Counted from the first letter of the stretch, positions 36,326 through 55,590 are shown. The stretch: DNA of 64,000 nucleotides from an uncultured Bacteroidales bacterium (GCA_963732575.1 CAVTAA010000003.1:66537-130536), one strand, 5' to 3'. Notes: generated from the sequence alone by a model not told the origin. Numbers and translations are program-made.

Positions 36326-36363
36326 TGCGTGAATGATGTAAATCATTTGCTGAATTGTGTAAA
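36326..36363 (+). promoter_or_regulatory. Regulon box 1
   Basis: TGCGTGAATGATGTAAATCATTTGCTGAATTGTGTAAA; TAGTTTTG 20 nt downstream (36384). Confidence 0.75.
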
Positions 36364-36414
36364 TTATTGAAGTCAGGGTGTGGTAGTTTTGACCGCTAAC
36401 TATAACGCTATACC

Positions 36415-38016
36415 ATGCGGAAGAAAATAATTTTAAAAATATTTATTGCAGCGTGCACTCTTGTGTTGCTGGTAGAAATTATGACCACAATTTTTATTGA
36501 GCCCTGGATCGGGGGAAAAATACGCTCAGAATTGAATAAAGAAGTAAGAAATTACATCGTTGAAATAGACAAGGTTAGCATTTTGATTGTCAAGTCAGGG
36601 ATAAAACTGACAGGAATGACAATATTTTCAAATCCGGAGAATGTAGGAGACCGCGATTTAATCGGTGAGATAGCGTCTGTAAAATTGACAGGCATCAACC
36701 TCCTCAGAGCAATATTTAAACATGATATTTATATTAATAAAGTAAACTTTTCCAATAGCATTATTAACGGTAAATTTCCATTCCCGGGCAGAGCAACACA
36801 GCCGGTAGTTTCACCAATGAGTCTCGGTATAGGCAAAATCCTGTTTGATAAACTGAACCTGGAACTGGAGGACAATTCAACGGGGCAGACTTATTCAGTA
36901 AAGGATGGGATGCTGAAAGTTTACGATTTGCAGGTCGGGAAGATGGATACCTTACTCCCAGGCACCATTAAGCTGTTTGATTTCAGAGCCCGGGAACTCA
37001 TTCTGGTTTCCTCTGACAAAATGTATTCTTATGTGGTAAAGGGGGTCAGCTATCCTGCCAATGTGAACACTTTGTTCATAGACAGCCTTTTTGTCAGACC
37101 AAATTACACAAACTATGATTTCACATCGAGGTATGCATTCCAGACCAACCGTATCGAAGTTGCCCTAACCGACATTTATGTTTACGATCTCGATTCTGAA
37201 GATTATCTCAGATCAATGAGCCTTACAAGCCCGTATATCGAAATCGGGCAAATGGACATGAAAGTTTTTCGTGACAAGAGAGTAAAATTCCAGCATATTA
37301 ATAAGCCCGCCTTCCAGGATATCCTTTACGACTTTCCCCACGCCTTCCTGATTGATTCAATTATTCTTAAGGAAGGTAATATATCTTTTACAGTACATTC
37401 TGAAGAGGCAAACGAGCCAGGAATTGTAAGATTCAATGAAATTAATGCCAGCCTTTACAAAATAACAAATGACACCAGCTACAAAACAGAAAAAGGTTTT
37501 TTAGAAATCAAGGCTGATGCCCTGTTAATGGGCAAGGGAAAGATGGCCGTTCATTTGAAAGAGAGAATATTTGACAGTAATAATGTATTTTCACTTGAAG
37601 GAACTCTTTCAGGTCTTGAAGCCAGTGAATTAAATCCAATCCTCGAAAAAAGTGCCTTTTTTTATGCCACTTCCGGAAGAATAGATGCATTGAGTTTCAG
37701 CTTTATTGCAAATAATGACAGGGCAGCCGGTAAAATGATCATGCTTTATCATGGGCTGGACATCGCAGTTAAGAACAAACAGACTGATGATACAACAGCG
37801 CTCAGAGAAAGATTTGTCTCCTATATAGCTAACCGAAGAATACCAGATTCAAACCCCGTGCAGGGGGAAGACGTCAGAGAGGGGACAATAGATTATATAA
37901 GAGATCCTGAAAGATCTGTTTTGCATTACTGCTTCAGATCTGTTCTTTCAGGAATTACTTCAACCCTGGCTGACGGCAATAAGAAGATGGAAGCTAAACT
38001 GGCAGGAATGAAGTAA
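36415..38016 (+). CDS. AsmA/DUF748-like membrane-anchored protein
   Basis: N-terminal TM, beta-rich body, C-terminal RDPERSVLHY pattern. Confidence 0.55.
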   Translation: MRKKIILKIFIAACTLVLLVEIMTTIFIEPWIGGKIRSELNKEVRNYIVEIDKVSILIVKSGIKLTGMTIFSNPENVGDRDLIGEIASVKLTGINLLRAIFKHDIYINKVNFSNSIINGKFPFPGRATQPVVSPMSLGIGKILFDKLNLELEDNSTGQTYSVKDGMLKVYDLQVGKMDTLLPGTIKLFDFRARELILVSSDKMYSYVVKGVSYPANVNTLFIDSLFVRPNYTNYDFTSRYAFQTNRIEVALTDIYVYDLDSEDYLRSMSLTSPYIEIGQMDMKVFRDKRVKFQHINKPAFQDILYDFPHAFLIDSIILKEGNISFTVHSEEANEPGIVRFNEINASLYKITNDTSYKTEKGFLEIKADALLMGKGKMAVHLKERIFDSNNVFSLEGTLSGLEASELNPILEKSAFFYATSGRIDALSFSFIANNDRAAGKMIMLYHGLDIAVKNKQTDDTTALRERFVSYIANRRIPDSNPVQGEDVREGTIDYIRDPERSVLHYCFRSVLSGITSTLADGNKKMEAKLAGMK

Positions 38017-38060
38017 CTTTTTAAAGGCAGACCATTTGAATTCTGAAGGTAATCAGGCAC

Positions 38061-38276
38061 TCACCATTTCCTTTTGGAGACTACCCACCCGAGCAGAAAA
38101 CCCAGACCCAGGCTGATCAGAATCTGCCCCCAGCGCAAACTGACGGTTCCCATTGAACTGTTGCCATGCCCCATCCCTTTTAGCCAGGGTCCTCCGCCCA
38201 AAAGCAGGAAGGCAATTATAATAATTGCAGCTGCAATTAAATAGTAAATTATTCTTCTGTCTCTTCTTGTGCTCAT
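38061..38276 (-). CDS. Small two-TM membrane protein
   Basis: Two hydrophobic helices; directly downstream of box 2 promoter. Confidence 0.7.
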   Translation of the reverse strand: MSTRRDRRIIYYLIAAAIIIIAFLLLGGGPWLKGMGHGNSSMGTVSLRWGQILISLGLGFLLGWVVSKRKW

Positions 38277-38370
38277 GATTTTCTCCTTATAAGTTTATTT
38301 TTGGCATTAATTGTTATTGCGGGAAGTGTCCGGCAACAAAGCAAAGGTAGGCAGCAAAGCCAGCGGAACT

Positions 38371-38408
38371 GTTACACTTTTGGTTTACATATTTACATAA
38401 TTCACAGA
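38371..38408 (-). promoter_or_regulatory. Regulon box 2
   Basis: Reverse complement TCTGTGAATTATGTAAATATGTAAACCAAAAGTGTAAC; TACCTTTG 21 nt downstream. Confidence 0.8.
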
Positions 38409-38426
38409 ACTTCAGTTCCATTTTAA

Positions 38427-52826: not shown

Positions 52827-52833
52827 TAATAAT

Positions 52834-53594
52834 ATGGAAACGCACACACAAGAAGTTCAAAGTAAGGTTAGGACTGTTTATTATAGGAGGATTGATGATT
52901 TTCGTCATCGCCATTTTTATAATCGGGAAGCAGGAAAACTTATTCGATCCTGTTTTTAAGATCACAACGACTTTCAATAATGTAAGCGGGTTGGAGACTG
53001 GAAGTAATATCCGTTTTTCAGGCATCACTGTTGGTACTGTTGATGATATCAGGATCATTAATGATACAACAGTGCGCGTTGATATGTTAATTAAAAAGAA
53101 GCGTTCAGCAGTTCATTAAGAATGATTGTGAAGCAGCCATAGGTTCCGCAGGGATAATTGGTGACCGCATTTTATTAATTACCCAGGGCAGAGATGATTC
53201 TCCCGTGGTAAAAGACGGGGCATACATCAGGTCAAAAGAACCTGTTGAAACAGATGCAATCATGGAGAGTATGCAAATAACAGCAGATAATGCCGCAATT
53301 ATTTCATTTCAGCTGGCAGATATCATGGTTAATATAAACAGTGGAAAAGGAACACTCGGGAGATTAATCCAGGATTCAACAATTGCTGAAAATATTGACA
53401 AGACAATCATAAATCTTAAGAACAGCAGCAAAGGATTAGATGAAAACATGAATGCAGCCCAGGAGAATTTTCTTCTCAAAGGTTATTTCAACAGGAAAGA
53501 AAAAGCTGCTGAAAAAGCTGCTGAAAAAGCAACTCAGGATTCTTTGGCAAGAAAGAAAGATGAACAAAAAGAAATTGATGATAAGAAAAAATGA
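52834..53594 (+). CDS. mlaD: MlaD/MCE family protein (apparent frameshifts near 52850 and 53100)
   Basis: VSGLETGSNIRFSGITVGTV, IGSAGIIGDR, GKGTLGRLI. Confidence 0.83.
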
Positions 53595-53625
53595 TTACGC
53601 GGATATAAAACATCGGGAATGGTAA

Positions 53626-55474
53626 ATGCAGGTATGTCTCAAAAATATTTTCTTGCTCTTTCTTATTTCATTTTTAATAAGTGATCCTGCATTTGCTCAG
53701 CAAACACCTGCCAAAACAAACTCCACAAGCATTTATAAAAATATTGAAACCTACTCCAGGCAAAGCAGGTTCAGGACATTTGTTTACAGGTTAATCTTCA
53801 AACCGGTCGCCCCGGTAACAAAAAAAAAGGTTGTCAGGAAGAAAACCTATAAAAACCTGATACAACAGCCATACAGCACCTTTGAAGGGAAAATTATCAG
53901 GAATATTGCCGTTGTAACTTTCGATCCTTTTGGTTACTCGGTGACTGACACGATTGTTGCAGACCAGAATTTCCTGCGTAAGGCGGGAAACGGAATGCAT
54001 ATTAAAACACGTGGCATAACAATCAGGAATCTGCTGCTTTTCCATAAGAATCAACCTTTCAATTCGCTGCTTGTGAAAGAATCCGAGCGCCTGATCCGGG
54101 CACAGGTATATATTCATGACGTCGCTTTTTCAATAATAACAGCTGGAGAAGATTCTGATTCAGTAGATGTCTTTATCCGTGCATTGGATAAATGGAGCAT
54201 CATACCGACAGGAACCGCTTCACCTGCCAAAGTCTTTGCCGGCATTGCCGATAATAATTTTTTAGGACTGGGTCATGAGTTTAAGAATTCTTTTTCAAGA
54301 AATTTCACTACCGGAATAAATTCATTCAATACGGATTATTTCATCCCGAACATCCGGAACACCTATGTCAATGCAAAGCTTCATTATGGTTTTGACTGGG
54401 ACGGAAACTTCATAAGGGGCCTGGCTGTTGACCGTCCGTTTTTTTCTCCGCTGGCTAAATGGGCAGCAGGAGTGATAGTGGTTTCTGAGTTCAGGAAGGA
54501 TACTCTGGATGCCATAAATCCTGCCTTTATTCCATATAATTTAAGATTCAATACACAGGATGTATGGGCAGGAAAAGCAATAAAAATATTTAATGACAGC
54601 AGGGATGATGAGCTTATTACCAATTTAATCTTTACAGCACGATACCTGCGTATCCGATATTCTGAAAAACCGCTTGAACAAAATGATCCGTTCCATATTT
54701 ATTCCGACGAAGATTTTTACCTGGGAAGCATAGGGATTACTTCCCGAAAATATGTGCGGGATAATTATATCTTCAGATTTGGTATTATCGAAGATGTGCC
54801 GGTAGGGAAAGTCTATAGTATGACAGCCGGTTACCAGGTAAAGGATAATTCCAGGCGGCTACTATCTGGGTATGCGCCTTTCCTTCGGTAACTATCACAG
54901 CTGGGGTTACCTTAGTTCCAACCTTGAATATGGTAGCTTTTTTAACGCATCAAATGCTGAACAGGGGATATTTACCGCGGGTATAAATTATTCCACAGTA
55001 TTATTTGAGATTGGAAAATGGAAATTCAGACAATTTGTAAAACCTCAGATGACAATTGGCATAAACTGGTTCCCTTACGATAGTTTAACACTTAATGATG
55101 GCTACGGACTGGATGGATTTAAAAGCCCGGTTTTATCAGGCACCAAACGCCTGTTATTAACTTTGCAGACACAATCTTACGCCCCATGGAGCTTTCTCGG
55201 TTTCCGTTTCGGGCCCTATCTTAATTTTTCTTTTGGAATGATTGGCGATGATGCGGGTGGGTTAAAAAACAGCAAAGTGTATTCACAATTCGGGTTTGGC
55301 GTTTTAATTAAGAATGAAAACCTGGTTATTAATACATTTCAGATATCCGTTTCATTTTACCCGTTTATCCCCGGCGTTGGCCAGGGTATTTTCAAAATGA
55401 ATTCAATCAGGACGACTGATTTCGGATTCAGGGATTTTGAAATTGAAAAACCGGGAATGATACAATACCAGTAA
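53626..55474 (+). CDS. Outer membrane BamA/TamA-like protein (frameshift near 54866)
   Basis: Signal peptide, POTRA-like ESERLIR..DKWS, NFLGLGH, beta-barrel C-terminus. Confidence 0.65.
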
Positions 55475-55507
55475 TCTCAGGAATGTCAGATATCAACTAC
55501 TTCATAA

Positions 55508-55545
55508 TGTGTGAATATTGTAAATCTTAATGGAAGTTGTGTAAC
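55508..55545 (+). promoter_or_regulatory. Regulon box 9
   Basis: TGTGTGAATATTGTAAATCTTAATGGAAGTTGTGTAAC; TACCTTTG 21 nt downstream. Confidence 0.8.
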
Positions 55546-55590
55546 GCCATTGGCAACCACCATGACTACCTTTGATTTCAACACATACTT

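Follow-up and report, generated by a model that had tools for sequence, protein, structure and literature searches.

A direct-repeat operator and its probable AraC-type regulator in an uncultured Bacteroidales bacterium, with counterparts across Bacteroidota

The window analyzed here, a stretch of 64,000 nt from an uncultured Bacteroidales bacterium, carries a low-GC island (GC 0.41 at 36.2-56.5 kb versus 0.489 at 1-36.2 kb). This island is missing from three congeners, in which the flanking genes lie ~1.9 kb apart (flank matches in G006, G018, and G003). Nine copies of an operator-like box, a gene for an AraC-type regulator and a series of predicted target genes are found in it:

36100..61580, low-GC island with the nine boxes, ~25 kb (GC and flank matches)
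36325..36392 (+), box 1 (regex, shuffles), operator and -7-like element TAGTTTTG, spacing 1 nt shorter than in boxes 2-9
36415-38016, box 1 target, 533-aa ORF with no known function
38342..38409 (-), box 2, operator and -7 element TACCTTTG, facing a minus-strand membrane ORF of 71 aa; forms a back-to-back pair with box 3
38426..38493 (+), box 3, operator and -7-like element CACCTTTA, upstream of the OMP beta-barrel gene 38551-39117
39369..39929 (+), 186-aa regulator, HMA-like N-domain and AraC-type double-HTH (Pfam, AlphaFold2, Foldseek)
39922..39989 (+), box 4, operator over the AraC stop codon and -7-like element CAACTTTG
40349..42830 (+), KaiC as two overlapping ORFs (40349-41353 and 41217-41945) and KaiB (42477-42830) (Pfam)
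43069-43590 and 43597-45348, PAS protein and M1 peptidase, downstream of KaiB
45396..45463 (+), box 5, operator and -7-like element TAATTTTA; targets a 109-aa secreted/membrane protein (45543), YtxH (46186), a holin-X-like protein (46502), a 132-aa ORF and an AI-2E-family transporter (47278-48408)
49345..49412 (-), box 6, operator and -7-like element CATCTTTG; target a 203-aa ORF, 48689-49300 (-)
50965..51032 (-), box 7, operator with proximal half TATAA and -7-like element TACCTTTC; targets an OmpA/glycine-zipper gene, 50241-50912 (-), and an OMP beta-barrel gene, 49503-50195 (-)
51089..51156 (+), box 8, operator and -7-like element AACCTTTG; targets MlaE, ABC ATPase, MlaD (split ORFs), 421-aa and 200-aa ORFs (to 55474)
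55507..55574 (+), box 9, operator and -7 element TACCTTTG; target an M48 peptidase lipoprotein gene, 55591-56406

The last codons and the stop of the regulator (..GAAAATGTGTGA) overlap box 4, which is followed by a conserved 49-aa membrane ORF (40027-40176) and then by kaiC-kaiB. Since the contig of a relative is 1 nt shorter at 41300 within KaiC, the split of this gene may be an indel error. The AraC gene itself lies behind the OMP barrel gene and is probably also driven by box 3, which would represent autoregulation. The predicted targets are general-stress and envelope genes, such as KaiBC, YtxH, OmpA, CsbD, Dps, BON, and others.

A previous sequence-only reading had placed nine bipartite boxes in the island, counting each from 3 nt upstream of GTGAAT or, on the minus strand, from its low end. 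All nine are exact matches at these places, and the regular expression GTGAAT..TGTAA has 9 matches in the window, with the G of GTGAAT at 36329+, 38405-, 38430+, 39926+, 45400+, 49408-, 51028-, 51093+, and 55511+. It has none in 1-36000, in line with the remark that no copy was noticed in the 36-kb housekeeping part; GTGAAT alone occurs 34 times in the window, 13 of them in 1-36000. The longer pattern GTGAATNNTGTAAN16TRTAA with at most one mismatch likewise gave 9 matches, and in 100 dinucleotide shuffles the mean and the largest count were both 0. The further details of that reading were borne out as well. The first TGTAA is followed by a T(G/A)TAA in 9/9 boxes, with 21 bp from start to start, an nAnnTTT[GAC] element lies downstream in all of them, every box faces a co-directional ORF and two pairs (38405-/38430+ and 51028-/51093+) are arranged back to back. 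Conservation covers ~30 positions and does not extend to the spacer or the flanks. Furthermore, boxes 1 and 5 represent conserved blocks within diverged intergenic DNA, box 1 in the orthologous loci L011-L013.

Each computational check put forward with that reading gave the predicted outcome. The proposed scan with a weight matrix covered the whole 3.34-Mb genome and revealed 13 sites of at least 32.8 bits, the next best match having 15.1 bits. All 13 are located at promoters, so that the sites are not random and stand clear of the background. Four of them lie outside the island (C2:753967+, C2:768679+, C2:1082088+, and C11:64147-). Thus, the nine island boxes of the suggested island-wide regulon stand, while its scope was drawn too narrowly, because members outside the island exist and the predicted regulator-operator pair is phylum-wide across Bacteroidota.

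The promoter geometry was measured on 193 distinct sites from 80 foreign loci. Here, the operator unit is a direct repeat of AATnnTGTAAC with a 21-bp period, in which the AAT is kept in the proximal half too and the distal copy is longer upstream (AATGTGTGAAT). Positions 58-64, which lie outside the site-finding matrix, are conserved over the 193 sites (A58 91%, T61 97%, T62 99%, T63 84%, and G/A64). In the same consensus that displays the 21-bp period, a -7-like element (A-CTTTG) follows 22 nt after the proximal copy; TTTG is present at offset 26 in 88/193 sites and the full TAnnTTTG in 41/193, 40 of these at offsets 21-23. The element matches the -7 element TAnnTTTG of the Bacteroidota primary sigma factor in the form nA-CTTT[G/A]. 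One study (PMC7641319) describes conservation of such a -7 box in Flavobacterium and Bacteroides. Just 17 of the 193 sites have a TTTG at the expected place of the -33 element (offsets 2-7 downstream of the proximal TGTAA), a place that is taken up by the operator. This is the tandem-site (class II-like) layout of direct-repeat halves ~21 bp apart, in which the proximal half reaches over the upstream promoter element. The fixed distance of the -7-like element and the lack of a -33 TTTG over 193 independent sites agree with the earlier proposal that the proximal half-site stands in for the -33 element.

The regulator belongs to the AraC/XylS family by its C-terminal domain of ~100 residues with two helix-turn-helix motifs, for which Pfam returned HTH_18 (E 2.9e-17) and HTH_AraC (E 1.1e-06). 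In the AlphaFold2 model (pLDDT 91.4), the N-domain is of beta-alpha-beta-beta-alpha-beta order and the AraC domain has 7 helices. Foldseek matched the latter to the DNA-binding domains of YesN, AraT, AdpA, MarA, SoxS, and AraC (TMt 0.68-0.79). The N-domain (residues 2-62) is modeled with the elements E2-6, H11-23, E28-32, E35-38, H44-56, and E60-62, the predicted ferredoxin-like fold of HMA domains, and its Foldseek matches are TTHA1718, Atx1, GolB, and TM0320 (TMt 0.59-0.67; E 0.09-0.3 for a search with the full-length protein). Pfam HMA (PF00403) gave no match to the N-domain at E<=0.01; HTH_18 and HTH_AraC were the only families matched. Cys13 is present in 50/50 relatives as part of a motif which reads SxxC here; residue 10 is Cys in 37 of them, Ser in 12, including this regulator, and Thr in 1.

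Around 80 AraC homologues of several orders, 110 strict sites were detected in 875,603 bp, with at least one site in 65/80 loci, and a reversed-pattern control around the same homologues gave 0. In 37/80 loci the first base of the site is the last one of the AraC reading frame, within the stop codon, and a bipartite site lies within -40..+160 of the 3' end in 92/149 AraC genes. Sites are also present upstream of AraC genes (11 first-ORF cases and both G108 paralogues). The co-occurrence suggested earlier as a check was observed in 41 relatives, since the strict motif is present in 13/17 AraC-positive versus 4/24 AraC-negative genomes, leaving 4 with the AraC gene only (G023, G027, G032, and G039) and 20 with neither; the reversed pattern gave 0 in all. 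One of the four genomes with the motif only looks like a chance case. The other three, the congeners G006 (92% complete), G007 (82%), and G009 (95%), hold genuine sites upstream of a YtxH operon, an OMP barrel and a cupin-like operon, and the AraC subfamily was not found in their assemblies with a protein query (E<=0.01) or a 50-row profile (E<=0.001). In these genomes the AraC gene is either unassembled or recently lost, or the sites are read by another factor. In a sample of the phylum, the AraC family is present in 27/27 other motif-positive genomes versus 201/400 overall, and in 11 of these 27 a motif match lies within ~1.1 kb of an AraC gene. Of 401 sampled genomes, 202 encode the family and just 8 besides G000 contain the strict motif more than once; this operator is common to closer orthologues only.

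In orthologues that are 56-62% identical, the distal box at the same position is a variant (GTGATA, GTGATT, GTGACA, or GTAAAT). Both TGTAAC and the second recognition helix, YSSVAHLSNQFKK, hardly vary. In the first recognition helix, residue 110 co-varies with base 5 of the distal box, being L in 63/65 regulators adjoining GTGAAT and T or I in 7/7 adjoining GTGAT[AT]/ATGATA. The motif variants follow the AraC clades and this one residue, a co-variation that probably rests on one or two clades, whose members are kin and not independent. Together with linkage and co-occurrence, this lends comparative support to the protein at 39369 as the probable reader.

The 38-bp box is probably the operator of the regulator encoded at 39369-39929, a predicted activator bound in tandem at 13 promoters. 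The sites with their specificity in the genome, their promoter geometry, their linkage and co-variation with the regulator across the phylum and the predicted fold are results of this analysis, and from these we infer binding, occupancy of both halves, activation rather than repression, the start sites and the signal as follows. Two protomers would sit in tandem on the AATnnTGTAAC repeat with its 21-bp period, the distal one on the stronger, extended site AATGTGTGAATnATGTAAC and the proximal one covering ~-41 to -36 of a Bacteroidota primary-sigma promoter. Since the -7-like element (nA-CTTTG) is kept but no -33 TTTG is present, transcription would need the bound activator, as has been described for AraC at I1-I2. 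The -33 element is weak or loosely conserved in many Bacteroidota promoters, and for this reason its absence does not prove activator dependence. The regulator would switch on the 13 promoters, nine in the 25-kb island and its own operon included, and thereby KaiBC, YtxH, OmpA, OMP barrels, parts of an Mla transporter, the M48 peptidase, the AI-2E-family transporter and small membrane proteins. As a guess, the signal at the invariant Cys13 might be oxidation of its thiol or a metal.

A repressor function is unlikely. The protein would then occlude the upstream part of the promoter and come off upon a signal, and a proximal half-site at the place of the -33 element could also block the polymerase, the more so as this element is loosely conserved in the phylum. 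However, with a span of ~-75 to -36 the operator does not cover the -7 element or the presumed start, a TTTG is found at the -33 place in just 17 of the 193 promoters, and tandem direct repeats abutting a promoter are the usual layout of AraC-family activators. It also appears quite unlikely that a different DNA-binding protein encoded elsewhere reads the boxes, the AraC gene being a mere member of the regulon. LytTR-type response regulators, for instance, bind direct repeats ~21 bp apart too, the boxes upstream of AraC genes would fit a target gene as well, and genuine boxes exist in G006, G007, and G009, where the AraC subfamily was not found. Nevertheless, a mere target gene would show no co-variation with box variants, which here follow AraC clades and a recognition-helix residue; the boxes are also absent in 20/24 relatives lacking the AraC gene, and Pfam identified no other HTH protein among the island ORFs.

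TGTAAC is similar to the AAC-type -35 boxes of ECF sigma factors, and an ECF sigma gene comes first after the box in 4 loci, which would suggest a promoter of an alternative sigma factor. This is very improbable, since the two halves are direct repeats of each other rather than two different boxes, the island is without a sigma gene (Pfam, island ORFs) and the primary-sigma -7-like element lies at a fixed 22 nt, which sets TGTAAC ~24 nt apart from CTTT, more than an ECF spacer allows. That the boxes are non-regulatory remnants of a repeated mobile element, as their clustering in a low-GC island missing from congeners might indicate, is hardly credible, as conservation is confined to the ~30 box positions, every box is oriented toward a gene and has its -7 element at a fixed distance, and orthologous positions are kept across orders.

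The mechanism of the favored activator is conventional. AraC, XylS, and RhaS are the textbook cases of a 21-bp direct-repeat period overlapping the -35 region. Like AraC at araI1-I2 and XylS/RhaS-type systems, the present one combines a double-HTH domain with two direct-repeat half-sites of this period, a weaker proximal half over the upstream promoter element and, probably, autoregulation. In contrast, the regulator has only 186 aa, would act at a Bacteroidota -7-type promoter and has stress and envelope genes instead of a catabolic operon as predicted targets. Its N-domain is a predicted 65-residue HMA-like ferredoxin fold with an invariant Cys, whereas that of AraC is a cupin/jelly-roll for sugar binding and dimerization. 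MarA, SoxS, and Rob are similarly small AraC-type proteins with scattered stress regulons (structural matches 1bl0, 7w5w, and 1d5y), in which each protomer uses two helices to recognize a ~20-bp bipartite site. However, MarA and SoxS are abundance-controlled single-domain monomers on a single site, unlike the two tandem sites and the attached sensor-like domain here. With the HMA domains Atx1, CopZ, and GolB the N-domain shares the predicted beta-alpha-beta-beta-alpha-beta fold and a [CS]xxC in the beta1-alpha1 loop, but it lacks a Pfam HMA match, its first Cys is Ser and the predicted fold is fused to a DNA-binding domain. To our knowledge, no such fusion has been characterized, and a full-text literature search yielded no characterized example.

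The general stress regulons of sigma-B (Bacillus), RpoS (E. coli), and EcfG/PhyR (Alphaproteobacteria) overlap in content, namely CsbD, YtxH, Dps, BON/OsmY-like, PNPOx-like proteins of the "general stress protein 26" type, DJ-1/PfpI, and OmpA-like proteins. Here, an activator together with the primary sigma factor would be in control instead of an alternative sigma factor. The full-text literature search found no description of this regulator, operator or regulon, all of which appear to be undescribed; the earlier reading likewise knew of no described regulon with this motif.

It is conceivable, though rather doubtful, that a general-stress response in Bacteroidota has its missing master regulators in the HMA-like/AraC proteins, whose chaperone-like domain would sense oxidation or metal stress through a single invariant cysteine or a bound metal and license tandem binding. 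If this is true, phylum-wide genes for Dps, CsbD, YtxH, BON, OmpA, and small membrane proteins would be switched on by HMA-like/AraC proteins and, in some lineages including this one, the KaiBC timer would be a clock-type module placed under the control of a stress activator.

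The sequence-only reading had placed nine copies of a 38-bp bipartite operator in the window, and a pattern search for GTGAAT..TGTAA returned exactly those nine:

36329, plus strand: box 1
38405, minus strand: box 2
38430, plus strand: box 3
39926, plus strand: box 4
45400, plus strand: box 5
49408, minus strand: box 6
51028, minus strand: box 7
51093, plus strand: box 8
55511, plus strand: box 9

The same nine places were found with GTGAATNNTGTAAN16TRTAA allowing up to one mismatch, a pattern which gave zero matches in 100 dinucleotide-preserving shuffles. Behind each box, an nAnnTTT[GAC] element is followed by a co-directional ORF, and two pairs are arranged back-to-back, in agreement with the claim that the boxes face downstream genes and include two divergent pairs. 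The first 36 kb of the window, the housekeeping part said to be devoid of boxes, contain GTGAAT alone 13 times and GTGAAT..TGTAA not once. Five tRNA genes (12924-14748), the only hits of an Rfam scan of the window, which found no RNA family over the boxes or the long kaiC leader, and large ORFs of rpoB/rpoC size (17782-25966) are located in this part.

In the assembly of this genome (G000; 3.34 Mb, 12 contigs, 73% complete), in which the window is C3:66537-130536, the strict pattern occurs 11 times, namely at the nine boxes and at C2:753967+ and C2:1082088+. A weight matrix built from these 11 sites added C11:64147- and C2:768679+. All 13 sites score at least 32.8 bits, versus 15.1 for the next-best place in the genome. 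Of the four sites outside the island, the low-GC segment of about 25 kb carrying the nine boxes, one faces a small OMP-like protein and one a small membrane ORF; the other two face gene pairs, cupin-like plus 142-aa and 274-aa plus TPR. The regulon is therefore sharply defined and centered on the island but, other than the term island-wide had implied, it is not confined to it.

The anatomy of the site was derived from 193 distinct sites with a matrix score of at least 27, taken from 80 loci of other genomes. Their consensus is AATgTGTGAAT.ATGTAAc(N10)AATT.TgTAAca. Since AATnnTGTAAC is common to both halves with a 21-bp period, the site is a direct repeat, of which the distal copy is longer and stronger than the proximal one. 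Counting the G of GTGAAT as 1, positions 58-64, which lie outside the site-finding matrix, are conserved as well (A 91%, C 70%, T 97%, T 99%, T 84%, G/A). These positions fit the -7 box TAnnTTTG of Bacteroidota primary-sigma promoters, which is described as conserved in Flavobacterium and Bacteroides (PMC7641319). A complete TAnnTTTG occurs in 41 of the 193 sites, 40 of these at offsets 21-23, and TTTG at offsets 2-7, the place expected for a -33 element, in only 17. The fixed distance of the -7-like element together with the rarity of a -33 TTTG suggests a primary-sigma promoter without upstream element, of which the proximal half-site spans positions of about -41 to -36. This supports the earlier proposal that the half-site takes the place of the -33 element. 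For boxes 1 and 5, box and -7 element form conserved blocks amid diverged orthologous intergenic DNA. Two other readings of the motif, an alternative sigma factor and a mobile repeat, were rejected because of the spacing and the divergence of the flanks, respectively.

The only HTH protein detected by Pfam in the island is the 186-aa AraC:

39369-39929, plus strand: AraC, the proposed reader of the boxes

An AlphaFold2 model based on a 50-row alignment (pLDDT 91.4) predicts a beta-alpha-beta-beta-alpha-beta N-domain (residues 2-62) followed by a seven-helix AraC domain. Using Foldseek, the C-domain matched YesN, AraT, AdpA, MarA, SoxS and AraC, and the N-domain the HMA proteins TTHA1718, Atx1, GolB and TM0320 (TMt 0.59-0.67), with E-values that are weak because the whole protein served as query. 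The Pfam HMA model did not match the N-domain, a sequence search of solved structures returned only AraC DNA-binding domains, and NCBIfam and the protein Atlas gave only generic AraC names and no specific family. The loop after strand 1 of the N-domain carries [CS]xxC. All of 50 relatives keep Cys13, and at position 10 there is a Cys in 37 and a Ser in 12, this AraC among them. As a guess, the N-domain might act in sensing or dimerization via thiol oxidation or a metal. A homodimer prediction with two AraC copies and the 50-row alignment (score 0.18, mark 0.42) weighs on neither side.

The linkage of regulator and box was analyzed in three samples. Among 41 genomes of the genus and order, with AraC presence called at E<=1e-10, the motif was present in 13 of 17 AraC-positive and in 4 of 24 AraC-negative genomes; it was absent from four and 20, respectively, and the reversed-pattern control had 0 matches in all 41. 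This bears out the expected co-occurrence, and one of the four AraC-negative matches (G029) looks like chance. In the named records, 579 of 598 candidate stretches encode an AraC relative, and the best 80 of these, from Bacteroidales MAGs, Prolixibacteraceae, Draconibacterium, Carboxylicivirga, Marinifilum and Chitinophagaceae, were analyzed. These loci (875,603 bp) harbor 110 strict sites, with 65/80 loci positive and 0 matches of the reversed control. In a phylum sample of 401 genomes, each at least 95% complete, the family was found in 202 by profile at E<=1e-25. The strict motif occurs in 28 genomes, G000 among them, and each of the other 27 also has the family, an association weaker than apparent given the high base rate in nearer clades and the non-independence of kin. 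A motif match lies within about 1.1 kb of the AraC gene in 11 of these 27.

Sites ahead of AraC genes, seen in 11 cases and for both AraC paralogues of G108, a genome of another family, suggest autoregulation. In 37/80 loci, counted from the list of sites, the first base of the site is the last one of the AraC frame, and in the window the last codons and stop of AraC (..GAAAATGTGTGA, 39915-39929) serve at the same time as the distal end of box 4. The C-terminal ..LENV-stop conserved among the homologues thus reflects a dual use of the DNA.

The subfamily was not found in the assemblies of the congeners G006, G007 and G009 (92%, 82% and 95% complete), all of which keep genuine sites. Their boxes are possibly read by another factor. 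For G009, a recent island loss or a missed contig is plausible, as its boxes are nearly the same as G017 boxes located off the island. In G006, which lacks the island, a mini-regulon of two operons, box-YtxH-holinX-132aa-AI2E and box-OMP barrel, lies between an aroA-like gene and mnmE (G006:C55:1-6000). If AraC were a mere target gene, no co-variation of AraC and box would be seen. In orthologues of 56-62% identity, GTGATA, GTGATT, GTGACA or GTAAAT replaces GTGAAT at the same place and the TGTAAC elements persist. Here, the second recognition helix (YSSVAHLSNQFKK) hardly varies, and position 110 in the first helix is occupied by L in 63/65 regulators with a GTGAAT 3' box and by T or I in 7/7 with a GTGAT[AT]/ATGATA box. 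Although it probably rests on one or two clades, this co-variation is the most telling evidence for AraC as the reader. Together with linkage and co-occurrence, comparative genomics supports the assignment of the boxes to the protein at 39369, and we consider it quite likely that AraC reads them and activates the promoters. Activation rather than repression is suggested by the promoter geometry alone.

To describe the regulon, the first ORFs behind 216 sites (13 of G000 and 203 foreign) were clustered; 14 sites had no ORF by a permissive rule.

Families of first ORFs behind the sites (members)
Cupin-like protein of about 120 aa: 33
109-aa family: 21
AraC itself: 11
KaiC: 10
OMP barrels: 8
OmpA: 7
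PAS kinases: 7
B12/radical-SAM enzyme: 6
ECF sigma: 4
YtxH: 3
CsbD: 3
GH130: 3
DJ-1/PfpI: 2

In G108, nine one-strand sites span about 31 kb of one contig in two stretches (G108:C1:284000-319000). The ORFs scanned behind five of them encode a protein with three BON domains, a P-type ATPase, an ABC ATPase, a PepSY-like protein and one protein without Pfam match; on another contig, a PNPOx-like protein is encoded behind a site. The G108 AraC paralogues are encoded on other contigs than this cluster, and each has a box of its own in front. In G324, a Dps-type ferritin is encoded behind one site. Such a gene set is typical of general-stress regulons.

The GC content is 0.489 over the first 36 kb and only 0.41 at 36.2-56.5 kb. 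Five congeners were searched for the sequences bordering the island, which end on its left at about 36.08 kb and start on its right at about 61.58 kb. In G006, G018 and G003 the two flanks are separated by about 1.9 kb; in G009 and G002 the search did not recover the left one. The island is thus a 25-kb insertion or deletion difference among congeners.

Genes of the island (Pfam)
533-aa protein, no family
OMP beta-barrel; AraC
KaiC (40349-41945, two overlapping ORFs); KaiB
PAS protein; M1 peptidase
109-aa protein without family; YtxH; holin-X-like; AI-2E-family transporter
203-aa protein, no family
OmpA/glycine-zipper; second OMP barrel
MlaE; ABC ATPase; MlaD
Two proteins without family; M48 peptidase
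56546-59349: CheB-CheR fusion and PAS_10 protein, box-less, right part of the island

Within 52050-53594, MlaD is split and the N-terminal half of the ABC ATPase is missing. The contigs of relatives are one base short at 41300, 52799 and 52849, so that the breaks in KaiC, ABC ATPase and MlaD are likely single-base indel errors of the assembly or real frameshifts. The frames of the CheB-CheR/PAS_10 stretch are broken between 58216 and 58552. The first frame after box 4 and before kaiC is a conserved small ORF:

40027-40176, plus strand: membrane ORF of 47-49 aa (MKTRDDL..RSKL..AIL.AY..)

Look-alikes are located behind two other boxes (C2:753967 of G000 and one in G006), and the ORF probably represents an unannotated small-protein family of the regulon.

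No sequencing run contained half or more of the window's words; the best DNA runs were freshwater, sediment and soil metagenomes with shares of at most 0.24. Contigs from two RNA-library runs are 90-95% alike over KaiC, KaiB, the 109-aa/YtxH genes, OmpA, MlaE and M48. They derive from relatives and bear on neither start sites nor induction, since contigs reveal no start, strand or level and the libraries may also contain DNA.

By domain and predicted fold, the regulator is a member of the AraC/XylS family, from which it differs by the HMA-like N-domain, the -7-type promoter and the regulon. Its proposed way of working would be analogous to that of AraC at I1-I2, XylS and RhaS, and as a predicted small stress activator it would resemble MarA and SoxS. 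The motif, the regulator, the fused architecture and the regulon were not found described in the open full-text literature, so that the claim that no such regulon has been described stands provisionally.

To our knowledge, general-stress coordination is little known in Bacteroidota outside gut models, and we know of no established counterpart of the sigma-B, RpoS or EcfG regulons in this phylum; a literature search found none. Here, a concrete regulator family is provided together with a sharply defined operator, the promoter architecture and the families of its targets, all of which are directly testable in cultured carriers such as Draconibacterium aestuarii, Carboxylicivirga taeanensis or Niastella caeni. 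The system would add an AraC-type activator whose predicted sensor domain resembles a metal chaperone, a case of -7-type promoters that depend on an activator, and small unannotated membrane proteins that recur as first genes of a regulon. Furthermore, it would give a handle on the role of KaiBC homologues in non-photosynthetic bacteria.
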